Positions 1,851-33,540 of a stretch of 33,540 nucleotides of DNA are shown one piece after another (the stretch's first letter is position 1; the number at the start of each line of letters is the position of its first letter). The stretch lies in the sequence record KY271398.1. One strand, written 5' to 3'. The position numbers were made by a program, and so were the translations under genes. The DNA comes from Klebsiella phage 4LV2017. The notes under the pieces were generated by a model. That model was not told where the DNA came from and did no database searches. It was given only the letters and a program-made list of their open reading frames with translations.

Positions 1851-2900
1851 CTATAGCCACCTAGAAATTATTGATGTTAACTTGGAAAAAATTTTAGTAT
1901 AATCTTCACGTTCTGGAATAATAATATTTCCTTCATCCTTTAATTCTGTGAATGCAGAATACGCCTCTTGAGCAGCTCTTTCCAAATCAGAACTAAGTTG
2001 TGGCCTTGATGCTTTTAGAGTAAAACTATCATTATTCCCTGATAGCCTTGCTCCGTGTTCATCTTTACCACTTATAATTACTTTAGAGTTGGCCATTCGG
2101 GTTGCACTTGTTGTTTTTTGAATGACGGCCTCAGAATTTAAACCATCTTCATTTTGATTTGTGTATACTAATTGAGCTTTACTACTATTAAGTTCTTCTT
2201 TTTCTTGTTCAATTTTCCTCCAGAAGCCATCAAGAGATATATTTTCACTATTTGTTGGCAATAACTCAATTGATAATTTATTAACAACAGAAAAGAGTTC
2301 AACAAAATTGCTCAATGATCTTGGGTCTGTTAAGGGGGTAACCCGTAATTTGGGGGTTCCTAGTTTACGATAAATATCTTTTTTATACAGTCGATCAATG
2401 TATGATTTTTTCTTTCTAATTCTTATATTTTTTTTTACTTCGTAATCCACAAAAGAATTATATCGCTGTGCAAGGCAATACTTGCTAGTATTTTCAAATT
2501 CTTCTAGGGTAGGGGCTCCAGAAACCTCTTTGCAAAGCATTAATCTGTGCTCATTAAGCATAAGAATAAAAATAGAGCTGGGGTGACTTTCTAGCGTCCT
2601 GTGATCTCGAATTAATTGACCATCTCGAAATATTTGATCTCGTTTAAATATGGTCTTTTTTATAATGCGGCCACACAATGCAATTGTTGGAACTATAGGA
2701 CCAATAAAATCTGAATCTGTAGTATCTAACGTAATAATTTTTGTGTCAGTAAAGAAATATTCTGTATCTTTAAATTTTCTAACGTATTTTTGTGCGAAAA
2801 ATGAAGGAAAAACAATGCAATCAAAGGCATCTAAGAGAACTTTGTCCTCTCCAAAATTTAAGGTATAGTTTGCAAATTCAATAGTTTTCGTAAAGCTCAT
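1851..2900 (-). CDS. Hypothetical protein (349 aa), no recognisable domain; accessory gene translationally coupled to the repressor and the membrane protein
   Basis: Long ORF in an AT-rich island. Its start lies 2 nt after the repressor stop and its stop lies 1 nt before the next start. The C-terminal half is charged and low-complexity. Confidence 0.7.
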   Translation of the reverse strand: MSFTKTIEFANYTLNFGEDKVLLDAFDCIVFPSFFAQKYVRKFKDTEYFFTDTKIITLDTTDSDFIGPIVPTIALCGRIIKKTIFKRDQIFRDGQLIRDHRTLESHPSSIFILMLNEHRLMLCKEVSGAPTLEEFENTSKYCLAQRYNSFVDYEVKKNIRIRKKKSYIDRLYKKDIYRKLGTPKLRVTPLTDPRSLSNFVELFSVVNKLSIELLPTNSENISLDGFWRKIEQEKEELNSSKAQLVYTNQNEDGLNSEAVIQKTTSATRMANSKVIISGKDEHGARLSGNNDSFTLKASRPQLSSDLERAAQEAYSAFTELKDEGNIIIPEREDYTKIFSKLTSIISRWL

Positions 2901-2902
2901 TG

Positions 2903-3844
2903 TTAAACCCTTTTTCTAATTATTCCTTTAACTTTATTATTAAATTCTAAATCTTTTTTATCGCATTCAAAGCTATATTTTGTGTTTTCAACGCGGATGC
3001 GATTGTTTGGAAGTTTAAATATGTCTCTAAAAGTAAATTCTCCGTTAATAGATACTAACCATAGACCATCGCTAAGATACTCCTCTTTGCTAATGATGTA
3101 TGAATCATTTGCGGAATTAACTATATAGGGATGTTTTAAATTTTTAGGTAAAATTTCGCTCGAAACGATTAATTCTCTTTGATCAGTAAGTTTGCCGTCA
3201 CGTAGATCATAGCAGTCTAATGTAAGCAACCCACTTAGCTTTGTTTGATTGGAATACCCCTTACCAAAAGATAACCACTCGAGAGACACTCCTGTTTCTA
3301 AACAGCATTGGATGATCCAGTCTGCCGGAAAAATGTCTCGCATGTATCGTGTAGCTAATGTGCTTTTTGAGATACCAAGGTGATCGGCTAAGGCTTGGCG
3401 CGTTTTGTAACCGTAAGCCTTAACAATTCGCTCTATTGCTGCTTTACCCCCTCGAGTGAACTCCATGTGGTTTTCATTATCGAACTTTATCGTGGGGGTG
3501 TGAACTTCATTGCAAAATTCATCTGCAGACTGTTTTTCAGCATGCCGTTCTGGCGAAGGAACTGGCACTCCTTCTTCAGCATCTAAACCAAATGCTAACC
3601 ATTCGATTGATGCGCCAGTTTCCATTGAACATATAACAACCCAATCAGCAGGGAAGGTATCGCGTGCATATCTGTTAGCCATTGTACTTTGTGAAATACC
3701 AAGGTGGTTACAGAATGCTTGGCGTGATTTGAAACCATAGGCCATGAGTATTCTCTCAATGACTTTTTGCCCTCCTCGATTCTGCATGACCATGGCTTTC
3801 AGATGATCTTCAATATGGCGAAATGTGATTTTATTAGTTGACAT
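2903..3844 (-). CDS. cI: Immunity repressor, phage 186 CI family, with two tandem N-terminal CI-type HTH domains plus a C-terminal domain (313 aa)
   Basis: There is an internal repeat: GGQKVIERILMAYGFKSRQAFCNHLGISQSTMANRYARDTFPADWVVICSMETGASIEWLAFG matches GGKAAIERIVKAYGYKTRQALADHLGISKSTLATRYMRDIFPADWIIQCCLETGVSLEWLSFG. Both match the 186 CI N-terminal motif (..AYGF...LA.HL.IS.S.L.NRY.R....D.....ETG..L.WL..G). The gene is divergent from the apl-like gene across an 88-bp control region. Confidence 0.8.
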   Translation of the reverse strand: MSTNKITFRHIEDHLKAMVMQNRGGQKVIERILMAYGFKSRQAFCNHLGISQSTMANRYARDTFPADWVVICSMETGASIEWLAFGLDAEEGVPVPSPERHAEKQSADEFCNEVHTPTIKFDNENHMEFTRGGKAAIERIVKAYGYKTRQALADHLGISKSTLATRYMRDIFPADWIIQCCLETGVSLEWLSFGKGYSNQTKLSGLLTLDCYDLRDGKLTDQRELIVSSEILPKNLKHPYIVNSANDSYIISKEEYLSDGLWLVSINGEFTFRDIFKLPNNRIRVENTKYSFECDKKDLEFNNKVKGIIRKRV

Positions 3845-3932
3845 ATTCTTTATGTGAACCTATTCTCCGTTTTGTGAAGTTTTCGTCACGATTAATACCG
3901 GCTCACCACAAGCCAATAGGAGATGTTGCATC
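3845..3932. promoter_or_regulatory. Divergent lysis/lysogeny switch region (pR/pL-equivalent promoters and operators) between cI and apl
   Basis: An 88-bp AT-rich intergenic region between divergently transcribed repressor and excisionase/Cox-like genes. Contains TTGTGA at 3870-3875. No operator could be defined with confidence. Confidence 0.5.
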
Positions 3933-4154
3933 ATGACCCCTAACATTTCAATAACTTTGAATACGCCGCACGTCACAATTGAGCGTTATAGCGAACTTAC
4001 TGGTCTTTCTATCGACACAATCAACGATATGCTGGCTGATGGTCGCATCCCTCGTCATCGCCTTCGGAAAGACAAGAAAAGAGAAAAGGTAATGATCAAC
4101 CTTGCTGCTCTTACCGTTGATGCACTTACTGATTGCAATGTTGTATTCAACTAG
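3933..4154 (+). CDS. apl: Apl/Cox-like small HTH regulator and excisionase (73 aa)
   Basis: It is the first gene of the early rightward operon. A small basic protein with a central HTH-like segment ([28 protein letters not shown]). RBS aggag at 3918-3922. Confidence 0.7.
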
Positions 4155-4186
4155 TTCCATTTTGGGATACATCAGGGGTGTCGACT

Positions 4187-4696
4187 ATGTTTGATTACCA
4201 AGTTTCCAAACATCCACATTTTGATGAAGCCTGTCGTGCATTCGCGCTGCGCCACAACCTGGTGCAACTGGCAGAACGTGCTGGCATGAATGTGCAGATT
4301 CTGCGGAACAAGCTGAACCCAGCTCAACCTCATTTATTAACCGCACCAGAAATCTGGCTGCTTACCGATCTGACTGAAGATTCAACGCTGGTAGATGGTT
4401 TTCTGGCACAGATTCATTGTCTGCCATGTGTACCGATTAATGAGGTAGCAAAAGAGAAACTGCCACATTACGTCATGAGTGCAACCGCAGAGATCGGGCG
4501 TGTTGCTGCAGGTGCGGTATCTGGCGATGTAAAAACCAGTGCAGGTCGTCGTGATGCTATCAGCAGCATTAACTCTGTAACACGACTGATGGCGCTGGCG
4601 GCTGTTTCATTGCAGGCCCGTTTACAGGCTAATCCTGCGATGGCGAGTGCAGTTGATACCGTGACTGGCCTCGGTGCTTCATTCGGTTTGCTGTGA
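4187..4696 (+). CDS. cII: CII-like phage regulatory protein (186 CII family, 169 aa from ATG 4187)
   Basis: [45 protein letters not shown]... is typical of P2/186-family CII/CP76 proteins. It lies directly after apl. RBS aggggtg. The upstream in-frame extension from 4133 is unlikely to be coding. Confidence 0.75.
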
Positions 4697-5760: not shown

Positions 5761-5987
5761 TGGCTGATGCAATGGATCTCGTACAGCAGCGCGTTGAAGA
5801 AGAACGCCAACGCCATATCCGTGCTGCCCGTGCCAAAACGCCGGGCGTGTCCCGCGTGCTTTGCGTTGAGTGTGAAGCGCCAATTCCGCCAGCACGCCGC
5901 CGTGCCATTCCGGGTGTGCAGCTTTGCATTACCTGTCAGGAAATCGCAGAGCTGAAAGGCAAACATTACAACGGAGGTGCTGTATGA
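5760..5987 (+). CDS. TraR/DksA-family C4 zinc-finger protein (75 aa)
   Basis: Cys pairs CVECEAPIP...RRRAIPGVQLCITCQ are typical of phage TraR/DksA zinc fingers (the P2 orf82 position). Confidence 0.75.
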   Translation: MADAMDLVQQRVEEERQRHIRAARAKTPGVSRVLCVECEAPIPPARRRAIPGVQLCITCQEIAELKGKHYNGGAV

Positions 5988-6841
5988 GCACCATCCTGAA
6001 ATGGGCGGGTAATAAAACCGCCATTATGTCCGAACTGAAAAAACACCTTCCTGCTGGCCCGCGACTGGTTGAACCTTTCGCGGGTTCCTGTGCTGTGATG
6101 ATGGAGACGGATTACCCCAGCTATCTGGTTGCGGATATTAATCCTGATTTAATCAACCTCTATAAAAAGGTTGCCGCTGATTGTGAATCGTTTATATCTC
6201 TCGCCAGAGTTTTATTTAAGGAAGCAAACAGGGAGGTGGCTTATTACAACATAAGGCAGGAGTTTAATTACTCCACTGAAATTACTGATTTCATGAAAGC
6301 GGTATATTTCCTGTATCTCAATCGTCACTGTTACCGTGGTTTATGTCGCTATAACAAGAGCGGGCATTTCAACATTCCCTACGGTAATTATAAAAATCCG
6401 TATTTCCCTGAAAAAGAACTTCGCACATTTGCAGAAAAAGCCCAGCGAGCAACGTTTGTCTGCGCCAGCTTTGATGAAACGCTGGCGATGTTGAAGGCGG
6501 GGGATGTGGTGTATTGCGATCCGCCGTATGAAGGTACGTTTTCCGGCTATCACACTGATGGTTTCACTGAAGATGACCAGTATCACCTGGCATCCGTTCT
6601 TGAACATCGGTCATCAGAAGGACATCCGGTCATTGTTTCTAACAGTGACACATCCCTGATCCGTTCGCTGTATCGCAATTTTACTCACCACTACATCAAG
6701 GCAAAACGCAGCATCGGCGTAGCAGCTGGTGAGAGTAAATCTGCAACAGAAATCATCGCTGTTTCCGGGCCGCGCTGCTGGGTGGGATTTGATTATTCGC
6801 GTGGTGTGGATAGTTCTGCCGTGTACGGAGTACGTGCATGA
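5984..6841 (+). CDS. dam: DNA N6-adenine methyltransferase, Dam family (285 aa from ATG 5984)
   Basis: The N-terminus [20 protein letters not shown]...[10 protein letters not shown] carries the SAM motif. The catalytic DPPY motif is present ([16 protein letters not shown]). RBS ggaggtg. Confidence 0.9.
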
Positions 6842-9252
6842 GCCATGCCGATATGAACAACTGCTGCGGCTTTAACGAGGCTGCCGCATCGTTCTCATGG
6901 AACAGCCCGAAAAAGGCCATTAACCCTTATCTGGACCCGGCGGAAGTTGCGCCGGTTTCTACGCTTTCAAACCTGATCACTCTGTACGCTGCCGATAACG
7001 AGCAGGAACAGCTGCGCCGAGAGGCACTGAGTGATCAGGTCTGGGAGCGTTATTTCTTTAATGAATCCCGTGATCCTGTCCAGCGCGAAATGGAGCAGGA
7101 TAAGCTCATTAGTCGGGCAAAGCTGGCGCATGAGCAGCAGCGTTTTAATCCGGATATGGTCATTCTGGCGGACGTCAACGCCCAGCCTTCCCATATCAGC
7201 AAGCCGCTGATGCAACGTATTGAATACTTCAGCAGCCTGGGCAAGCCAAAGGCTTATTCCCGCTATTTACGTGAGACGATTAAGCCATGTCTGGAACGGC
7301 TGGAGCATGTACGCGACAGTCAGCTATCCACTTCTTTTCGCTTTATGGCAAGCCATGAAGGGCTGGACGGCTTGTTGATTCTGCCTGAAATGAGTCAGGA
7401 TCAGGTGAAACGCCTGTCCACCTTGGTAGCTGCGCATATGAGCATGTGCCTTGATGCAGCTTGTGGCGATTTGTATGCCACCGATGACGTTAAGCCAGAA
7501 GAAATCCGCAAGACATGGGAAAGGGTGGCGGCGGAAACCCTGCGTCTGGATGTCATCCCACCTGCGTTTGAGCAACTCCGTCGGAAAAGAAACCGCCGTA
7601 AACCCGTGCCCTATGAACTCATTCCGGGTTCGCTGGCGCGTATGCTGTGCGCCGACTGGTGGTATCGGAAATTATGGAAGATGCGTTGCGAATGGCGGGA
7701 AGAGCAGTTGCGCGCTGTCTGCCTGGTCAGCAAAAAAGCATCTCCTTATGCCAGCTATGAAGCCGTGATGCATAAACGTGAGCAGCGCCGTAAGTCGCTG
7801 GAGTTTTTCCGTTCTCATGAACTGGTGAACGAAGACGGCGACACGCTGGACATGGAGGATGTGGTAAACGCCAGCAGCAGCAACCCGGCGCATCGCCGCA
7901 ATGAGATGATGGCTTGTGTTAAAGGTCTGGAGCTTATCGCGGAAATGCGCGGTGACTGCGCCGTTTTCTACACCATCACCTGTCCGTCACGTTTCCATTC
8001 CACGCTAAATAACGGCAGGCCCAACCCGACCTGGACAAACGCGACGGTAAGACAAAGCAGCGATTATCTGGTCGGCATGTTTGCTGCATTTCGCAAGGCT
8101 ATGCATAAAGCCGGGTTGCGCTGGTATGGCGTGCGGGTGGCTGAGCCGCATCATGACGGTACAGTTCACTGGCACCTGTTGTGTTTTATGCGCAAAAAAG
8201 ACCGCCGCGCCATCACTGCATTACTGCGTAAGTTTGCCATCCGTGAAGACCGAGAGGAGCTGGGCAATAACACTGAGCCGCGCTTTAAGTCTGAGTTGAT
8301 TAACCCGCGCAAAGGTACGCCAACAAGCTACATAGCGAAATACATCAGTAAGAACATTGACGGGCGCGGTCTGGCTGGCGAGATCAGCAAGGAAACGGGT
8401 AAATCCCTGCGTGATAATGCTGAATACGTTAATGCCTGGGCGTCTCTGCATCGTGTTCAGCAATTCCGCTTCTTTGGCATTCCGGGGCGTCAGGCTTACC
8501 GTGAACTGCGATTGCTGGCTGGTCAGGCGGCAAGGCAACAGGGGGACAAAAAAGCAGGTGCGCCGGTACTGGATAACCCGCGCCTTGATGCCATCTTGGC
8601 TGCTGCTGATGCTGGTTGTTTTGCCACCTACATCATGAAGCAGGGCGGCGTACTGGTTCCCCGCAAATATCACCTCATCAGAACCGCTTATGAAATCAAC
8701 GAAAAGCCGACCGCCTATGGCGATCACGGCATTCGTATTTATGGTATCTGGTCACCTATTGCAGAGGGCAAGATCTGCACTCATGCCGTGAAGTGGAAAA
8801 TGGTTCGTAAGGCCGTTGACGTTCAGGAGGCGGCAGCCGACCAGGGCGCTTGCGCCCCTTGGACTCGTGGCAATAACTGTCCCCTTGCTGAAAATTTGAA
8901 CCAACAAGGGAAAGACAAATCAGCTGACGGGGATACCAGGACGGACATTACCCGCATGGATGACAAGGAGTTGCACGATTACCTGCACAGTATGAGCAAA
9001 AAAGAGCGCCGGGAACTGGCTGCAAGGTTACGCCTGGTGAAACCGAAACGGCGTAAAGACTACAAACAGCGAATTACAGACCATCAGCGACAGCAGCTCG
9101 TCTATGAACTGAAGTCCAGAGGATTTGATGGCAGCGAGAAAGAGGTCGATTTACTCCTTCGCGGCGGCAGTATTCCGTCAGGAGCAGGCCTGCGTGTCTT
9201 CTATCGGAACCAGCGTTTGCAGGAAGATGATAAGTGGCGAAACCTGTATTAA
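6838..9252 (+). CDS. A: Rolling-circle replication initiation endonuclease, P2 gene A / 186 RepA family (804 aa)
   Basis: Same size and position as P2 gpA. It has the paired-histidine metal motif ([11 protein letters not shown]) and the conserved [12 protein letters not shown] active-site tyrosine motif. Confidence 0.9.
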
Positions 9253-9405
9253 TTACGCGGGTTAACAATTCGTGCTCTTAATAATACCAGGCATATCAGG
9301 CTGATGAACGTAAAAAAACGTTTTACATCAGTAAGATTATTATATACTGTAAATATAAACAGTGGCTATACATACAGTGTTGCTTGTGGTGTCATAGGAG
9401 GAAAG

Positions 9406-9594
9406 ATGCAGGACTATTTTTTGGAGTCTTTGAAGCTCCAGCGCATTGATTTTTTTCTTAAGCTTGTAGCGGCTAGTGAGTGTAGTGATGAAGAGAAGGG
9501 GCTGGCTTTGCAGTGGGTTTCTGAACTGACAGATGAACTCATGGCAAAAATCAGAACCCACGAATACAACCGCTCAATGGATGTCATCAGCTGA
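9406..9594 (+). CDS. Hypothetical small acidic protein (62 aa from ATG 9406)
   Basis: Strong RBS aggagg at 9396-9401. The longer upstream in-frame extension has no RBS. Confidence 0.5.
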   Translation: MQDYFLESLKLQRIDFFLKLVAASECSDEEKGLALQWVSELTDELMAKIRTHEYNRSMDVIS

Positions 9595-9604
9595 GGTGAC
9601 TTTT

Positions 9605-9838
9605 ATGCGCATTGAAATAATGATCGATAAAGAGCAGAAGATTAGCCAGTCTACCCTGGACGCCCTTGAATCCGAGCTTTACCGCAATCTGCGCCCCCTG
9701 TATCCCAAAACGGTAATCCGTATCCGTAAAGGTAGCTCTAACGGTGTGGAACTGACCGGACTGCAACTGGACGAAGAAAGAAAACAAGTGATGAAAATTA
9801 TGCAGAAGGTGTGGGAAGACGACAGCTGGCTGCATTGA
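9605..9838 (+). CDS. dinI: DinI-family protein (77 aa)
   Basis: MRIEIMIDKEQKISQSTLDALESELYRNL...IMQKVWEDDSWLH parallels E. coli DinI (MRIEV...ALAGEL...ETWESADDWF). RBS gaggtga. Confidence 0.75.
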   Translation: MRIEIMIDKEQKISQSTLDALESELYRNLRPLYPKTVIRIRKGSSNGVELTGLQLDEERKQVMKIMQKVWEDDSWLH

Positions 9839-9892
9839 TTTTGTCAATAGACGCTTGTTTTTTCTAATCAAAAAGGGTTACATATGAGTGAG

Positions 9893-9926
9893 AGGCGATG
9901 ATCAATCAGATATCGCCTTGTTTTTT
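9893..9926 (+). terminator. Rho-independent terminator (aggcgat...atcgcct + TGTTTTTTG) after dinI
   Basis: Seen directly: 7-bp stem, 12-nt loop, U-tract. Confidence 0.5.
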
Positions 9927-9952
9927 GTCAAGAAAAGAATAATAGGCTAAAA

Positions 9953-10630
9953 ATGAAAATTAATAATGTAGCGTTACCAATATCTCTTGCTGTAATCCTA
10001 ACTGGTTGCGTACCACATGCTTCTAACCGAAATATCACTGCTATTGAAGTGGTGAAGCCTGCTATTGGGCAAAGTGCTACCGCCTACATGGGCGATCCCA
10101 TTATCACATCTGCTACTGGATTTAAAACGGACGTATTAGAACTTGGTGCGGCTAATGGTGCATTGTCTTCTATCGCTGCTGGTACATATTGCAGTGAGGG
10201 GAATGGAATTTATCGCAATTATCATAACCCTCAAGCTGTTGCGTTAAAAAATCTCTATGGGCAAATCGGTAACTATGTTGATTATGTTAGTTACGATGCT
10301 GCAAAAAATGAGATATCACCGCCAAATGGCACTTCTTATACTGCATCAGAAATTTCTATCAAACGTGTTCCTGATGGGCTGTGTCGAGTGAGTAACTCAT
10401 TGGTTAAGACTATCGAATACAATGGAAATGCAGGCGGTGTAATGAAGTTCACCTATCGTGAATTTGCAAACGATATGGCTCGTGCAGCATTTACAACAGA
10501 TTTTTCTGTAGATTCTAAAGGAAGTGATGTTATCGCTTACAAAGGTGCCAAGTTCAAAGTGAACAAGGCTGATAACTCGTCTATTTCTTATACAATTATT
10601 TCTGGCTTTGACAAGGCTGTCACGTTCTAG
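9953..10630 (+). CDS. Predicted lipoprotein (225 aa); accessory gene, possibly superinfection exclusion
   Basis: Signal peptide with lipobox: MKINNVALPISLAVILTG-C. The mature part looks beta-rich and secreted. The gene is AT-rich. Confidence 0.7.
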   Translation: MKINNVALPISLAVILTGCVPHASNRNITAIEVVKPAIGQSATAYMGDPIITSATGFKTDVLELGAANGALSSIAAGTYCSEGNGIYRNYHNPQAVALKNLYGQIGNYVDYVSYDAAKNEISPPNGTSYTASEISIKRVPDGLCRVSNSLVKTIEYNGNAGGVMKFTYREFANDMARAAFTTDFSVDSKGSDVIAYKGAKFKVNKADNSSISYTIISGFDKAVTF

Positions 10631-10734
10631 GTTTCACGCTTACTGAGTATGTTACGATTTTGCACATTCTGCATAAACGCGCATGTCTATGCTGCATGAG
10701 ATCGCATGATCGTTTGAGGATCTTTTGTGTTAAG

Positions 10735-10758
10735 GCCCGCCAGTTCTAGCGGGCTTTT
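10735..10758 (+). terminator. Rho-independent terminator gcccgc-cagttcta-gcgggc-TTTT after the lipoprotein gene
   Basis: Seen directly. Confidence 0.65.
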
Positions 10759-10803
10759 GCGTAGATCATGCAGGTGCATGAAAACCACTACATAAAGTGG
10801 GCA

Positions 10804-10834
10804 GGCGTGGCGGGCATACGAGCGCGCGCTGAGC
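10804..10834. other. cos: Candidate P2/186-type cos site (cohesive-end 19-mer GGCGTGGCGGGCATACGAG followed by CGCGCGCTGAGC)
   Basis: From memory, the P2 left end is GGCGAGGCGGGGAAAGCAC-TGCGCGCTGACGG and the 186 overhang is GGCGTGGCGGGGAAAGCAT. The first 11 nt and the following GCGCGCTGA block match here. The position on the portal/terminase side of the accessory hotspot is as in P2. Confidence 0.4.
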
Positions 10835-10867
10835 TGCATTCACTTGAATAATCCGTACGTTAGTGCT

Positions 10868-11030
10868 AGCCTAGCTGTGCCCTTAGCAGGAAAGTACATT
10901 CAATATGTTACTTTCTAGTGGTTGGTGTTTAGCCAACTCGTATGGATTGCTTGGTATCTCGACACAAGTTAGCCTTGTGTCATTTATAGACACCAGGCTA
11001 ACTTGTGTCTCGGGAACTCTTGTATGGGCA
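10868..11030 (+). ncRNA. msr-msd: Putative retron non-coding RNA (msr-msd). It has a conserved-looking GTGCCCTTAGCAGG start, an msr hairpin at 10921-10937, and a long msd stem-loop at 10961-11009
   Basis: Seen directly: a 14-bp perfect inverted repeat (gacacaagttagcc / ggctaacttgtgtc) with a nested inner stem (tgtgtc/gacacc). The long six-frame ORF runs straight through this palindrome, which is implausible for coding sequence. The motif GCCCTTAGCaGG resembles the Ec86 msr 5' region (CACCCTTAGCGAGAGG) that contains the branching G. It lies immediately upstream of the NDT-like effector and the retron RT. The exact ends and the a1/a2 repeats are not resolved. Confidence 0.45.
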
Positions 11031-11039
11031 TTAATTGTT

Positions 11040-11957
11040 ATGTGGTTTAAACATCCTAGATATTTACGAGCAAAAGAAAATTTTATTTCAAGTTTTTTTC
11101 CAAGTAACTTGAATTCTTTTAATTATATTCTGCCAAAAGTATTATTTATTTGTGGCGGTGATGAGACTTATTGTTCAAATAGAGGGATGCTGGAAAAATA
11201 TATTGCCAAGCATCATAAAGAATTTGTTACTTTTCGAGCAGAATTAGCATGGGAAGTAATTAGCAATTTAGGAACTCATAGTAATGTGAATGCGTTATCA
11301 CTAGAAGAATGGCTTGCGGATTTTTCTGATGTGGTAATTATTCTCGTAGAGAGTTATGGCACTGTAGCTGAATTAGGCGCATTTTCATTAAGTCCTGTTT
11401 TACGTAAAAAACTTCTTCCTATATTAGATAAAAAGTTTGAAACTCATAAGTCATTTATCAATACAGGGCCCGTAAAATGGGTTGATAGTGAATCCAAATT
11501 TGGCCCTACAATCTATACCGAATTTGAGACAATTTTAACGTGTATGCCTAAAATAAATGAAAGGCTAAATAGGAAAGTTCAATCAAACATAACTAATGCA
11601 AATTCAATAGGTGATTACAAGTATTCACCAAAAATTTTTTTATTTTTTGTGCTCGTTGTTATATCTTCTTTAGGGCCAATAACAATTCCTGAAATTATTA
11701 ATATCACAGGTAGGCTGATTAATTATAAAATTAATAAAAATATTTCATTTGTTGTTTCTATTGGAGTTGCCCTTGGGATTTTTAAGGAAAGTCGATTTGC
11801 GGGCGTGACTCATTATTCATGTGTCGATTATATTAAATTTTTTAATCATGAAAAGATGAAAGATTTAGTTGAAAGTATTCAACGAAGTAGAGCTAGATCA
11901 TTATCCGATTTAATAATGATATCCAAATTCAAAGCAGAATTAGAAAGGATCATGTGA
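11040..11957 (+). CDS. Retron effector: N-terminal nucleoside 2-deoxyribosyltransferase-like domain with a hydrophobic (about 2 TM) C-terminal region (305 aa from ATG 11040; start uncertain)
   Basis: An NDT-like beta1 motif (KVLFICGGDE) and a catalytic-Glu motif (VVIILVESYGTVAELGAFS, compare DSGTAFEIGYA in NDTs). C-terminal hydrophobic segments IFLFFVLVVISSLGPITIPEII and ISFVVSIGVALGIF. The stop lies 1 nt before the RT start. The upstream 45 codons of the tracked ORF cover the msd palindrome and are taken as non-coding. Confidence 0.65.
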   Translation: MWFKHPRYLRAKENFISSFFPSNLNSFNYILPKVLFICGGDETYCSNRGMLEKYIAKHHKEFVTFRAELAWEVISNLGTHSNVNALSLEEWLADFSDVVIILVESYGTVAELGAFSLSPVLRKKLLPILDKKFETHKSFINTGPVKWVDSESKFGPTIYTEFETILTCMPKINERLNRKVQSNITNANSIGDYKYSPKIFLFFVLVVISSLGPITIPEIINITGRLINYKINKNISFVVSIGVALGIFKESRFAGVTHYSCVDYIKFFNHEKMKDLVESIQRSRARSLSDLIMISKFKAELERIM

Positions 11958-11958
11958 T

Positions 11959-12888
11959 ATGTTAATTGAGTATCTAGCTAAAATTTTACTGTTAGAAGCT
12001 GATTTTATATTAAAAGTTGCAAATGATGCTAACTCGCATTATGGTAAATTTTCTGTACCTAAAAAAGGCGGTGGGACAAGAATCGTCTATCAGCCCTCTA
12101 AAGAATTAAAAGTTTTGCAGAGATTACTGCATGATAATATTCTGTCGAAATTGCCGATTCATCCAAATGCTGTAGCATATCAGCAGGGTTCATCAGTGTT
12201 CAGACATGCAAGCATTCACAAAGCTAAACGTTTTATGCTTAAGATGGACTTTGAAGGTTTTTTTGATTCAATTAAGGAAAGTGATGTTGAGAGATTTATA
12301 AACGATAAAAAGCATTTCTTCAGTGATGATTGGTCAAAGGATGATACTGATTTGCTGGTGAAAATAGTATGCTTTAACGGGAGACTGACTATGGGTGCTG
12401 TTAGTTCCCCTGTAGTAAGCAATGCTATATGCTATGAATTAGATCATATATTGAATGAATTTTGTCTTTCAAAAGGTGTAATATATACACGCTATGCTGA
12501 TGATATGTACTTCTCAACAAACGAAGAAAATGTATTGAAGCAAATACCACCTTTTTTACGCTCGAATTTAAAAACTTTAAAATACCCATCAAAACTATGG
12601 ATTAATAGAAAAAAGACACTGCATATGTCAAAGAAAAATAAAATGATGGTTACGGGTGTGACTTTGACAACAGATGGTGGAGTATCCTTAGGGAGAGATA
12701 AAAAAAGGATGGTTAAATCGCTTATTTTTAAATGGGAGGCTCTTGATGAGAAGAAAAGGTTATTTCTCCAAGGATATTTATCGTATTGCAAAAGTGTTGA
12801 GCCATTATTTATTAATAGGCTTTGTGCGAAATATTCATCAGAGCTGATTGATGAAATCCAGAGATATCAACCTGTAGTATCAGAATAA
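11959..12888 (+). CDS. ret: Retron-type reverse transcriptase (309 aa)
   Basis: RT motifs are all present: motif 1 PKKGGGTRIVYQP, motif 2 LKVLQRLL, the retron-specific NAVAYQQGSSVFRHASIH, motif A LKMDFEGFFDSI, motif B MGAVSSPVVSNAI, motif C YTRYADDMYFS, and the retron VTG motif (MMVTGVTLTTDG). Confidence 0.9.
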   Translation: MLIEYLAKILLLEADFILKVANDANSHYGKFSVPKKGGGTRIVYQPSKELKVLQRLLHDNILSKLPIHPNAVAYQQGSSVFRHASIHKAKRFMLKMDFEGFFDSIKESDVERFINDKKHFFSDDWSKDDTDLLVKIVCFNGRLTMGAVSSPVVSNAICYELDHILNEFCLSKGVIYTRYADDMYFSTNEENVLKQIPPFLRSNLKTLKYPSKLWINRKKTLHMSKKNKMMVTGVTLTTDGGVSLGRDKKRMVKSLIFKWEALDEKKRLFLQGYLSYCKSVEPLFINRLCAKYSSELIDEIQRYQPVVSE

Positions 12889-12895
12889 CGTGTGT

Positions 12896-12925
12896 GCGCA
12901 TGAGAATTTCCATGCGCATTTTCTT
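12896..12925. terminator. Bidirectional terminator hairpin gcgcatg-agaatttc-catgcgc + ATTTTCTT between the RT (plus) and Q (minus)
   Basis: Seen directly: a perfect 7-bp stem with an 8-nt loop, and T/A runs on both sides. Confidence 0.6.
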
Positions 12926-13952
12926 AAAAACAGTAGTCATTAAATGAAATAATTTCTTTTTCAGCCCAATTATTCAATGATTCAAAATTCTTTTGCAATG
13001 GCATTAACTCATTCCGCACAAACACTTTGCTTGCCTTCTCCACATCCCCAAATCCCCCAACATTATTCGGCATAATCCCCATCATTTGCGGCGGCACGCG
13101 GTGCGCAGCCATCATGTCATCACGGCTCACGTTCTTGATATTCAGAAACTCATCCTTCGCCGCAACTTCTGACAAAGGGATGATCTGAAGGCCGTCCTTT
13201 TTGCCGTTAGGCGAGTACATAAACAGGTTGCGGAAGTTGCCTGGACCTTTGGCGCTTTTCATTGCGTTGCGGAGGTTGTTCACATCTTCCTGGTTCTGCG
13301 CGGCATCGGTCATGTACATGATGAAGCCTGCATGGCTGCCATTGATGTAATACTTACGGCGGAACAGCGTGGCGGACTCGTTGAGCAGGGCTGACGGAAT
13401 GGCAGAAAGATAACCTGGCAGGCCGTAGATCTCCTGGTTGATGTCCGGTTCCATCAGATGAAAAATGCTGCCTTTCGTGAACTGATACGGCTGGGTTGTC
13501 ATACCGTATTGCACAAACCAGTAGGTATCCAGGTCTAACCCGCGTCGGGTGTATTTTGCCAGAGCAGGCTCAAGGGCGATAACTTCACCGAAGCGGTTAG
13601 TGCGTTTCTCCAGGTAGGCGTTACCAAAAACCAGATAGTCCTGCACAAAACGTGAAAAAGCCTGCTGGCTGAGCAGCGGGTGAGGGATATAGGTGCTGGT
13701 CAGAATATTGCACTTTACTGCAATCGGTGAGCTGTGATGCACGGCGGCGCGGAAGGTTCGCGCCAGTCCGTCAAAACTCACTGGCGGCTCATACCAGCGA
13801 TCTGTCTGTACGCATTCCACATAGTCCAGTAGTTCGCGGCGATCCAGTACTGGAATGGGATCGCCGAAGCTGAATGCTTCGGCTGAAGTCTGGCTTTTAT
13901 GCTGGGTCTGGTTCTGCGACGCAGCGCGGTTCTTCTTACTCTTTCCCATCAA
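12924..13952 (-). CDS. Q: Capsid portal protein (P2 gpQ family, 342 aa)
   Basis: Size, orientation and position next to the large terminase. Its start overlaps the end of P. Confidence 0.85.
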   Translation of the reverse strand: MMGKSKKNRAASQNQTQHKSQTSAEAFSFGDPIPVLDRRELLDYVECVQTDRWYEPPVSFDGLARTFRAAVHHSSPIAVKCNILTSTYIPHPLLSQQAFSRFVQDYLVFGNAYLEKRTNRFGEVIALEPALAKYTRRGLDLDTYWFVQYGMTTQPYQFTKGSIFHLMEPDINQEIYGLPGYLSAIPSALLNESATLFRRKYYINGSHAGFIMYMTDAAQNQEDVNNLRNAMKSAKGPGNFRNLFMYSPNGKKDGLQIIPLSEVAAKDEFLNIKNVSRDDMMAAHRVPPQMMGIMPNNVGGFGDVEKASKVFVRNELMPLQKNFESLNNWAEKEIISFNDYCF

Positions 13953-33421: not shown

Positions 33422-33440
33422 CAGGCAACAAAAAACCCAT
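33422..33440. repeat. attR: attR core: second copy of the 19-bp direct repeat caggcaacaaaaaacccat
   Basis: Identical to 9-27. Confidence 0.75.
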
Positions 33441-33475
33441 CAACCTTGAACCGAAGTGGCGGGGTTGATGGGCTC
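33428..33475 (-). terminator. Host-side rho-independent terminator read on the minus strand (cccatcaacc...ggttgatggg + TTTTTTG); its U-tract overlaps the att core
   Basis: Seen directly: cccatcaacc at 33436-33445 pairs with ggttgatggg at 33465-33474. On the minus strand the stem is followed by tttttt. Confidence 0.5.
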
Positions 33476-33540
33476 CACAAAATGGGGACATCAAAGAAAA
33501 GCAGTGGCATTACTTATGACTGATGCCCTGAGAAAAAGTT

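Follow-up and report, generated by a model that had tools for sequence, protein, structure and literature searches.

Among the described retrons, Retron-Sen2 of Salmonella Typhimurium (msDNA-St85; rcaT/STM3845 and rrtT/STM3846) and its Escherichia coli relative Retron-Eco9, both of type II-A1, are the closest to the locus analyzed here. The operon order msr-msd, effector, reverse transcriptase (RT) was described for Sen2 and Vmi1 (PMC11701397), and the toxin-antitoxin logic with its phage triggers was shown for Sen2 and Eco9 (bioRxiv 10.1101/2020.06.22.160168, 10.1101/2020.06.22.160242). What the II-A1 effectors (RcaT) act on biochemically is still regarded as unclear (PMC13645617). According to Mestre et al., type II effectors combine a nucleoside deoxyribosyltransferase (NDT) part, a hydrophobic helix and a winged helix, with a possible single transmembrane (TM) segment (PMC7736814). 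This layout explains why the Sen2 and Vmi1 effectors were termed “putative inner membrane proteins” (PMC11701397). For Retron-Eco1 (Ec86; E. coli B/BL21), which belongs to type II-A3, NAD(P)+ hydrolysis and a Dcm trigger are summarized in a passage of PMC12673091. Retron-Eco2 (Ec67) of the retronphage phiR67 is of type I-C and consists of an RT-Toprim fusion without a separate effector. In a 186-related prophage it takes the place of the sequence from cos to the portal-side terminator (Dodd & Egan 1996 and Hsu et al. 1990, as related in a passage of PMC7826664). The cos-proximal site of P2/186-type prophages was documented as a defence hotspot (PMC9122126; Dodd & Egan 1996, cited in PMC7826664).

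We analyzed a stretch of 33,540 nucleotides from Klebsiella phage 4LV2017 (KY271398.1), called the window throughout. It very probably harbors an ordinary anti-phage retron of a catalogued kind, the Salmonella Sen2/St85 type (II-A1: Sen2/St85, Ec73, Vc81), in a 186/Fels-2-like prophage. An earlier note on the same DNA had proposed a retron built like Retron-Sen2, with the ncRNA first, followed by an NDT-like effector and the RT. Family HMMs, covariation and structure prediction agreed with this proposal. The features are compiled in Table 1.

Table 1. Features of the retron locus and its surroundings (positions in the window).
Feature	Position	Strand	Evidence or remark
Dam-type MTase	5924-6841		
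gpA	6838-9252		
Prophage cos site	10804..10822	.	19-nt cohesive end GGCGTGGCGGGCATACGAG; context, outside the retron
Putative sigma-70 promoter	10844..10872	+	-35 TTGAAT 10844-10849, 17-nt spacer, -10 TAGCCT 10867-10872
Retron ncRNA (msr-msd), 153 nt	10878..11030	+	fold and covariation
a1 arm	10878-10885	+	TGCCCTTA
Branching G	10886	+	directly 3' of a1
msr stem-loop 1	~10889-10917	+	
msr stem-loop 2 (conserved)	10920-10938	+	GGTTGG-TGTTTAG-CCAACT
msd template hairpin	10958..11012	+	21-bp arms 10961-10981 / 10989-11009, one mismatch, flanking pairs extend
a2 arm	11023-11030	+	TATGGGCA; one U.U mismatch versus a1
Effector (RcaT-like), 305 aa	11040..11957	+	PADLOC, NCBIfam, homologs, AF2, Foldseek
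Retron RT, 309 aa	11959..12888	+	motifs, Pfam, PADLOC, NCBIfam
Terminator-like intrinsic hairpin	12894..12926	+	GTGCGCATG...CATGCGCAT, then TTTTCTT; terminator scan, sequence
Portal gene	12924-13952		

Location of the retron in the prophage

The retron operon covers positions 10844-12919 of the plus strand and is compact, with a low GC content of ~32%. Along this strand a weak promoter, the ncRNA, the effector gene, the RT gene and a terminator hairpin follow each other. The promoter assignment is putative. In the alignment the spacing of the TTGA.. and TA...T boxes to a1 was identical in the relatives; the -10 box is poor with 3 of 6 consensus matches, and the promoter consensus scan did not pick up the promoter at 10844-10872. 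Transcription would be expected to start at ~10878-10880, at the a1 arm. At the other end the terminator hairpin closes the operon and adjoins the stop (12924) of the convergent portal gene.

Alignment with Fels-2 and with the two termini of the linear phage 186 record located the cos site, which bounds the cargo slot on the left. Similarity to the Fels-2 backbone stops at ~10829; Fels-2 and the Klebsiella phages have a common backbone up to ~10830 and different cargo beyond. The retron thus lies between gpA and gpQ beside cos, at a place whose content is variable among related phages. With high confidence we regard the carrier as a 186/Fels-2-like (Peduoviridae) prophage and the retron, of type II-A1 (Sen2/St85 family), as its cargo between cos and the portal gene. 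It is a textbook case of defence cargo in the hotspot that P2/186-like prophages have beside cos. The earlier assignment to the A-Q accessory slot of a P2/186-like prophage, used also by Ec67 and Ec86, was supported by comparison with phage 186 and the Ec86 locus. Retron-Eco1 occupies the same slot: in its 186-like prophage it lies between cos and the portal gene. The prophage of Ec67 has a Dam methylase, as does the window.

Identification of the reverse transcriptase

Pfam detected RVT_1 in the RT (1.5e-22). The best PADLOC model was RT_II-A (PDLC02939, E=2.9e-104), followed by RT_I-A at 1e-82. Using the NCBIfam models, retron_St85_RT scored 324 bits (cut-off 235), while the Ec67 model (cut-off 450) reached 151 bits and the group II, Drt2 and Drt4 models remained at or below 38 bits against cut-offs of 300-450. 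Among the PDB sequence matches, the top 14 of 15 were named retron RTs, the weakest being a generically named RNA-directed DNA polymerase. After PDB 22et the closest solved RTs came from type I-A (Eco7/Ec78, Eco4/Ec83; E 1e-43 to 1e-48, 311-312 aa). The type I-A effectors are, in contrast to the NDT-like protein found here, a PtuA ATPase and a PtuB HNH nuclease.

The earlier note had credited the RT with every retron hallmark. FFDSI, YADD and VTG are indeed present in the translation and all catalytic motifs are intact, but the NAxxH position reads HASIH (N to H), which aligns with NATPH of the Ec86 RT and NALAH of PDB 22et. The protein thus falls into the retron clade with intact YADD, VTG and xAxxH regions. 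An RT of another defence class (Abi, DRT/UG, DGR or group II intron) with an incidental hairpin upstream is effectively refuted. Such a reading could draw on the RVT_1 fold, which is common to all these classes; the model scores and PDB matches given above and the ncRNA with its a1/a2 stem, branching G and covariation contradict it. The original view of a retron RT was thereby confirmed: retron_St85_RT passes its cut-off, and the group II, Drt2 and Drt4 models fail theirs.

Structure and conservation of the ncRNA

The general architecture of retron ncRNAs was found at 10878-11030: a1/a2 inverted repeats, a branching G directly following a1, stem-loops in the msr part and a hairpin in the msd part. 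An unconstrained fold of this region reproduced the a1/a2, msr and msd parts, and a larger region around it folded with z = -6.1 versus shuffles. The alignment comprised 15 sequences, i.e. the window and 14 relatives from the same effector family. In the relatives the a1/a2 stem, the branching G and the msr hairpin were conserved and covarying. Over the 15 sequences, pairing of a1/a2 and stem-loop 2 amounted to 94.8% (at most 59.5% in the slid-partner control), and compensatory double changes were observed at 5 pairs. The arms of the msd inverted repeat are 95% complementary. By analogy with Ec86, whose ends were used as a guide, the predicted msDNA would be the complement of ~10952-11021, about 70 nt in length; folded as DNA it gave -21.5 kcal/mol. 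Rfam searches, permissive over 9000-13500 and with gathering thresholds over the whole window, yielded no retron msr family, the sole matches being chance snoRNA/CRISPR-like ones. The ncRNA predicted upstream of the effector was found at 10878-11030. The start of 10860 given in the earlier note lies in the stretch from the putative promoter to the a1 arm.

A different pairing, of AATCCGTACG (10850-10859) with CGTATGGATT (10939-10948), was longer, window-specific and dominant in the first fold. It was rejected as a1/a2 stem because it is unconserved in the relatives and leaves the msd outside the stem.

The 8-bp a1/a2 stem of the window contains one U.U cell, the only unpaired one at its column among the 15 sequences. 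Its source is an A-to-T change in a2, which reads TATGGG in the window and TAAGGG in 14 of 14 relatives. The mismatch might lower the msDNA yield. Taken further, together with the weak -10 box and the AT-rich island, which may be H-NS-silenced, it could indicate a decaying or silent passenger of a successful prophage, producing no msDNA and providing no defence any more. We consider this very unlikely. Neither ORF is truncated, the catalytic residues are intact, 7 of the 8 a1/a2 pairs are still formed, and an E. coli copy with ~98% nucleotide identity keeps the same mismatch. Furthermore, a toxin gene lacking a functional antitoxin should be selected against, but identical proteins occur on hundreds of contigs; an intact toxin gene at such a frequency argues for a working antitoxin.

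In this enterobacterial II-A1 lineage, a2 (TAAGGG) also provides the sole Shine-Dalgarno-like sequence, located 9-15 nt ahead of the effector start codon. One speculative and rather improbable possibility is that the a1:a2 duplex, and RT binding or priming on it, would occlude the toxin ribosome-binding site in cis. Toxin translation would then depend on the state in which the antitoxin RNA is found, and the A-to-T change of the window would weaken both functions of a2 together.

Effector gene and its translational start

The longest ORF of the effector gene extends from 10905 to 11957 on the plus strand (350 aa), and databases often annotate the protein from the ATG at 10905. Based on sequence comparison, the true start is the ATG at 11040 with the conserved MWF. 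The 350-aa version was rejected because the homologs have 305-316 aa with an invariant W2 after the MWF start, the HMM alignments begin downstream, and the first 45 codons are ncRNA. This corrects a mis-annotation in which the 350-aa calls swallow the ncRNA. As noted earlier, the gene ends 1 nt before the RT start: the single base 11958 separates its TGA (11955-11957) from the ATG, and the Shine-Dalgarno sequence of the RT gene (GAAAGGA, 11943-11949) lies within the 3' end of the effector gene.

The best PADLOC effector model was NDT_II-A (PDLC02928, E=1.7e-53), and NCBIfam STM3845_fam scored 178 bits with a cut-off of 100. The local Pfam copy gave no domain, including NDT, for the effector; the precomputed PF28093 entry in the database is newer than this copy. 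The motifs VLFICGGDE and ESYGTVAELGAF, on which the NDT-like reading had been based, are present in the translation, and the fold was recovered by structure prediction and family HMMs.

Fold of the effector and its hydrophobic segment

The AF2 model of the effector reached a pLDDT of 86.9 and a pTM of 0.83. Its best Foldseek matches were chains of the Retron-Eco1 effector (8qbl_E / 8qbk_E / 7xjg_J) over 288-308 columns, i.e. full length, with E ~1e-11. The N-domain matched DNPH1 (8rpt_B, probability 1.00), NDT (8pqq and 9emx) and BcmB (4jen_B), and MarR-like wHTH matches were also obtained. A match to a GPCR (7k15; TM 0.31, rmsd 17) was considered spurious. Model and alignment together point to a flavodoxin-like fold of the NDT/DNPH1 type that contains a catalytic Glu. 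E111 is invariant in 54 homologs and aligns with E106 of Eco1, the column in which the wild-type and E106A chains differ.

Residues 199-217 (IFLFFVLVVISSLGPITIP) showed a Kyte-Doolittle 19-residue mean of 2.34, with a usual threshold of 1.6; the maximum in II-A1 homologs had a median of 1.83. The C-terminal hydrophobic helices described before are therefore real as a hydropathy peak. Their reading as TM helices was not supported: they form a winged helix-turn-helix in the model, and the segment aligns with a soluble Eco1 domain. In the AF2 model, residues 197-261 form a helix-helix-helix-beta-beta arrangement typed as winged helix (pLDDT 89-95), whose hydrophobic helix (helix 1, pLDDT above 90) has only 15 residues and is followed by the invariant G212-P213. 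In a profile of the 54 homologs the segment aligns with Eco1 ~203-220, part of a soluble effector with a C-terminal DNA-binding domain. [quoted passage not shown] For Sen2-type effectors in general, they probably represent the winged-helix core.

A new subtype with a membrane-anchored toxin, whose C-terminal TM helices tether the NDT domain so that it acts at or through the inner membrane and not as a soluble msDNA-bound enzyme, appears very unlikely. It would agree with the hydropathy value above 1.6, with the Ec86 effector having no such C-terminal peak, with the possible single TM of Mestre et al. and with the homolog called “putative inner membrane protein” in the Vmi1 paper. However, the short helix before G212-P213, the profile pairing and the superposition of the full model on the soluble Eco1 effector stand against it. 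Moreover, the hydrophobic feature is common to the whole II-A1 family, so that even a membrane anchor would not make a new subtype. A broader version, in which II-A1 effectors unlike Eco1 are membrane-associated via the hydrophobic helix 198-220, is in our view weaker still than the a2 Shine-Dalgarno reading.

Classification and comparison with known retrons

Effector and RT both scored above the curated NCBIfam cut-offs for the “retron St85 family”, and their PADLOC and NCBIfam matches greatly exceed what chance would give. The Ec86 (II-A3) control obtained other II-A models in PADLOC (PDLC02930 / PDLC02941) than the window (PDLC02928 / PDLC02939), which places the system in Mestre type II-A1. 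RT clade 1 and the ncRNA type are common to I-A and II-A1 (Mestre et al., PMC7736814), and RT_I-A as second-best model is expected for this clade. Taken as sequence evidence, the best and second PADLOC models, the nearest solved I-A RTs and the Ec86 control point indirectly to clade 1 for the RT. The effector agrees with II-A1 by PDLC02928, STM3845_fam and the NDT/DNPH1-like and wHTH matches of its model, and the operon shows the II-A1 order msr-msd, effector, RT. Type II-A3, with effector, msr-msd, RT and a clade-9 RT, does not apply, since the window has the ncRNA first and different best HMMs.

Two arguments for a different or new subtype had been raised. The RT was regarded as short, but 309 aa is normal for clade-1 retron RTs (best PDB relatives 310-312 aa). 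The combination of NDT and TM segments matches the layout of the Mestre type II effectors, and the proteins already bear the name “retron St85 family”. Nothing supports a new subtype.

By family models and published descriptions, the window retron resembles Sen2 in operon order, in both proteins passing the NCBIfam models of the family, and in an NDT-like effector with a C-terminal DNA-binding part containing a hydrophobic helix. In contrast, Sen2 is chromosomal while the window retron is prophage cargo, and the Sen2 msDNA has GATC, making Dam a trigger, while the window msd is without GATC. An identity of the effector with Eco9 RcaT was rejected: Ser155/181/254/292, named for that protein (PMC13645617), are absent in either numbering. 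With Retron-Eco1 the window shares the effector fold over the full length, the catalytic Glu and the a1/a2 core CCCTTAG / GTAAGGG of the ncRNA. It differs from the effector-ncRNA-RT order of the Ec86 locus (effector 2591-3514, ncRNA 3501-3670, RT 3734-4639). Effector identity is 41% over 116 residues (NDT core only) and RT identity 32%, and the Eco1 effector is without a strongly hydrophobic helix.

Proposed mode of action

The anatomy of the locus is consistent with a single transcript beginning just upstream of a1, the 5' 153 nt of which would constitute the msr-msd and the remainder would encode effector and RT by close coupling. As a member of its family, the RT would bind the conserved msr stem-loop, prime at the 2'-OH of G10886 and copy the msd into an msDNA of ~70 nt. 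From Sen2/Eco9 genetics and the Eco1 structures, the RT-msDNA may bind the effector and hold it inactive, with the winged-helix domain touching the msDNA. The effector would then be an NDT-fold N-glycosidase with the catalytic Glu111 in a tripartite toxin-antitoxin system, and abortive infection as for Sen2/Eco9 would be expected. An infecting phage would modify, degrade or titrate the msDNA (methylases, RecE-like exonucleases) and thereby free the effector. The freed effector would arrest the cell, probably by hydrolyzing NAD(P)+ or by ADP-ribosylation, activities reported for Eco1. Since the II-A1 target is described as unclear, the NADase step is modeled on Eco1, a more distant retron of type II-A3. 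The arrest would abort the infection and protect the lysogen population and the prophage. By analogy, msDNA production, toxicity and defence are thus inferred for this retron.

Distribution

The system is already known: PGAP and PADLOC standard annotation names it, and the analysis adds little in this respect. The exact proteins are found on ~800 to >1000 public contigs under the NCBI name “retron St85 family”, and the carrier prophage is widespread in Klebsiella pneumoniae. Exact ncRNA coordinates are now at hand for a retron very frequent in this species, with possible relevance for phage-therapy host range and as retron-editing chassis. The effector relatives came from a genome-contig scan with 26 loci, Salmonella not being among them. 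Against 50,697 phage records, megablast matched only the 200-bp cos backbone, and a tblastn search with the RT as query gave no match above 40% identity, so this phage collection does not contain the retron, although one UniRef name refers to a Caudovirales entry.

Gene Order and Assignment of the Retron

The retron coincides with a stretch of low GC content (approximately 29-35% across 10830-12923, 2.1 kb), while the surrounding phage backbone shows 52-60%. The stop codon of the effector gene and the start of the reverse transcriptase (RT) gene are separated by one base, with the Shine-Dalgarno sequence of the latter (GAAAGGA) placed within the 3' end of the former. The promoter-like pair in front of the operon has a weak -10 box and was not called by the promoter scan. 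All peptide motifs quoted in the earlier note were found in the translations, except for NAxxH; the equivalent position exists in the RT, but reads HASIH and aligns with NATPH of the Ec86 RT and NALAH of PDB 22et.

Features of the retron and of the adjoining phage backbone
Feature	Position	Strand	Remarks
t95b-like terminator	10734-10758		
cos, 19-nt cohesive end	10804-10822		10631-10900 aligned with both ends of the linear phage 186 record
Promoter-like pair TTGAAT-17-TAGCCT	10844-10872		relatives show similar boxes at the same place
a1 arm TGCCCTTA	10878-10885		conserved in alignment
Branching G	10886		
First ORF	10905-11957	+	350 aa, taken as longest ORF
msr stem-loop 2	10920-10938		conserved in alignment
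msd hairpin	10961-10981 / 10989-11009		21-bp inverted repeat, one mismatch
a2 arm TATGGGCA	11023-11030		conserved in alignment
Second ORF (RT)	11959-12888	+	309 aa
Hairpin and T-run ending the operon	12894-12926		terminator scan and sequence

The RT matched Pfam RVT_1. Among the PADLOC models RT_II-A PDLC02939 was the best match (2.9e-104), followed by RT_I-A (1e-82), and NCBIfam retron_St85_RT was matched with 324 bits (curated cut-off 235). Scores against the group II intron, Drt2 and Drt4 models of NCBIfam remained far under the cut-offs. The effector matched PADLOC NDT_II-A PDLC02928 (1.7e-53) and NCBIfam STM3845_fam, the family of the Sen2 effector (178 bits, cut-off 100). Mestre et al. 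(PMC7736814) split type II-A into three subtypes: II-A1 with a clade-1 RT common to I-A (e.g., Sen2, Vc81, Ec73), II-A2 with a DNA-binding domain fused to the RT, and II-A3 with a clade-9 RT (e.g., Ec86). PADLOC model PDLC02940 (477 positions) fits the description of the fused II-A2 RT. The Ec86 locus of E. coli BLR(DE3), run as a control against the same models, gave other II-A models as best matches for effector and RT (PDLC02930 and PDLC02941, respectively). As the best II-A model thus differs from that of Ec86 and RT_I-A came second, the profile is that of II-A1, which points to a type II-A1 retron, assigned indirectly from HMM matches.

Of 15 PDB entries related in sequence to the RT, the top 14 are named retron RTs; 8bgj_A, the weakest match, bears only a generic name. 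Those nearest to the RT (22et, Ec78, Ec83) comprise 310-312 aa, hence 309 aa is the usual length in this clade and not the hint at a deviating subtype for which it had been taken. The retron identity and its overall interpretation in the earlier note were essentially right. The suggested new subtype found no support. The retron belongs to an already catalogued type, and its hotspot is known as well.

Retron ncRNA and Start of the Effector Gene

The 220 nt 5' of the effector gene were aligned for the window, an E. coli copy of the retron and 18 loci encoding effector relatives. Three conserved blocks became visible: (G/T)CCCTTAG, GTGGTTGGTGTATAGCCGACCCG, and GTAAGGG(C/T) shortly before the ATGTGG of the effector start. 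The Ec86 ncRNA shares the same a1/a2 core (CCCTTAG / GTAAGGG) for its closing stem. Unconstrained folding of 10878-11030 yielded the canonical retron shape, in which the a1/a2 stem encloses a pair of msr hairpins and the long stem of the msd, and the wider region folded 6 SD better than shuffled sequences. Covariation was analyzed for 14 pairs of a1/a2 and msr stem-loop 2 in 15 sequences (a1-msr and a2 parts). These were paired to 94.8%, compared to at most 59.5% in slid controls, with changes on both sides at 5 pairs, e.g., C-G to U-A in four sequences. At column 12/95 the sole unpaired cell was the window's own, a U.U caused by the change from TAAGGG to TATGGG in a2, which the E. coli copy carries identically. 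By analogy to Ec86 we infer an msDNA of about 70 nt that would run from opposite ~11021 to near 10950.

The effector is listed by PGAP and in most database entries in its 350-aa form (799 contigs), which reads through the retron ncRNA (10905-11039); the 305-aa form is likewise present in NCBI. The start at 10905 was rejected, as its extra 45 codons are ncRNA. Effector relatives comprise 305-316 aa and open with MWF (W2 invariant), ATGTGG is kept at the DNA level, and the PADLOC and NCBIfam HMM matches begin 3' of the extra codons. Together with the ncRNA overlap, these sequence features place the true start at ATG 11040.

In enterobacterial relatives, TAAGGG of the a2 arm (-15 to -9) resembles a Shine-Dalgarno sequence better than anything else within 45 nt of the effector ATG, so that the a1:a2 duplex could mask the ribosome-binding site of the toxin gene. 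In relatives that are more distant and have longer spacers, an AGGA/GAGG box is present separately from a2. The TATGGG of the window (region 11023-11040) makes both a weaker stem and a weaker Shine-Dalgarno element.

Effector Structure and Proposed Mechanism

The AlphaFold model of the effector (54 homologs; pLDDT 86.9, pTM 0.83) found its best PDB matches in the Retron-Eco1 effector chains 8qbl_E, 8qbk_E and 7xjg_J (288-308 columns, E 1e-10 to 1e-11, TM 0.51-0.59). Further down the list, the N-domain matched DNPH1, nucleoside 2'-deoxyribosyltransferases and BcmB, and the C-domain matched MarR-type winged helices. Glu111, invariant among the homologs, aligns with Eco1 E106, the residue changed in the "inactive effector" entry 8qbl. 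The hydrophobic C-terminal helices described earlier were confirmed (residues 199-217 reach a Kyte-Doolittle value of 2.34), but a true membrane span is considered unlikely. In the model, the hydrophobic stretches belong to a winged helix of helix-helix-helix-beta-beta layout, as its helix 1 (197-211, up to the invariant G212-P213) and its helix 3, and in the 54-sequence profile the segment aligns with the Eco1 effector's soluble C-terminal domain. Such helices are a trait of the II-A1 effector family and are missing from the Ec86 effector. Type II effectors were described before as "NDT-like + winged helix, potentially one TM" (Mestre et al., PMC7736814), and the Sen2-type effector as a putative inner membrane protein (Vmi1 paper, PMC11701397). 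The combination of NDT domain and hydrophobic helices is therefore the family norm and no sign of a new subtype.

Based on homology, the N-glycosidase-type effector would be kept inactive by the RT-msDNA complex until a phage interferes with the msDNA and thereby sets the effector free. For Sen2/Eco9, RT-msDNA is the antitoxin of the toxin RcaT, with specificity from the RT, and triggers are Dam methylation of the msDNA GATC or RecE degradation (bioRxiv 10.1101/2020.06.22.160168,.160242). For Eco1, filaments, a Dcm-type trigger and NAD(P)+ hydrolysis are summarized in PMC12673091. In contrast to the GATC-containing, Dam-triggered Sen2 msDNA, no GATC was found in the ncRNA/msd (10878-11030). 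Given the GATC-free msd, the prophage's own adenine methyltransferase (5924-6841), an enzyme of the D12 class (Dam-type), would not be expected to trigger the effector, a compatibility of the two. The sole CCWGG of the ncRNA/msd (CCAGG at 10993) falls exactly on the single mismatch of the msd stem.

Prophage Context, Distribution and Further Loci

As a 186/Fels-2-like prophage, the window has genes for integrase, CI, CII, the Dam-type methyltransferase, gpA and DinI/Tum, followed by portal and terminase genes on the opposite strand. The phage 186 record finishes at its right end with ...GTGGGCA and opens at its left end with GGCGTGGCGGG. Similarity to Fels-2 and 23 Klebsiella phage records ends at ~10830 and homology picks up again at the portal stop codon, so the retron fills the cos-to-portal slot, in agreement with the proposed A-Q accessory hotspot; in Fels-2 a different gene is found there. 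The presence of Ec86 and Ec67 at this locus, as given in the earlier note, also held: Ec86 was confirmed on the fetched E. coli BLR(DE3) locus, and both were mapped to the slot by Dodd & Egan, as cited in PMC7826664. Rousset et al. (PMC9122126) described it as a P2 defence hotspot with retrons among its contents. The non-coding backbone block of 200 bp at 10631-10830, holding terminator and cos, is kept to 97-99.5% in Fels-2, RE-2010, 23 Klebsiella phage records and 573 E. coli records, and is flanked by variable cargo on both sides.

Identical sequences were found on at least 1000 contigs for the RT and on 799 for the effector, mostly from Klebsiella pneumoniae, both proteins being named "retron St85 family ..." in the databases. 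In eight complete E. coli genomes the slot is likewise occupied by a copy, ~98% identical at the nucleotide level (345/350 effector and 302/309 RT residues identical). The deposited-phage collection contained no close copy. Effector relatives at 44-63% identity occur in Yersinia, Pantoea, Pectobacterium, Vibrio, Shewanella and others.

Left of cos, a 225-aa ORF (9953-10630, +) with a lipoprotein-like N-terminus (MKINNVALPISLAVILTGC) showed no Pfam, PADLOC or NCBIfam match. Phage 186 has at this position orf97, which blocks 186 infection when plasmid-expressed, and Fels-2 has STM2726; the ORF may be a superinfection-exclusion candidate. No tRNA gene was found in the window. A RybB sRNA (33427-33505, -; 103 bits, gathering score 40) lies at the right edge, where GC content falls, probably in host flank or the prophage attachment region. 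Between integrase (102-1154) and CI repressor (2903-3844), Pfam, PADLOC and NCBIfam gave no match for two adjoining ORFs of 201 and 349 aa (1244-2900, -; 30-32% GC). The pair resembles a second accessory or cargo island of the prophage, possibly of greater interest than the retron.
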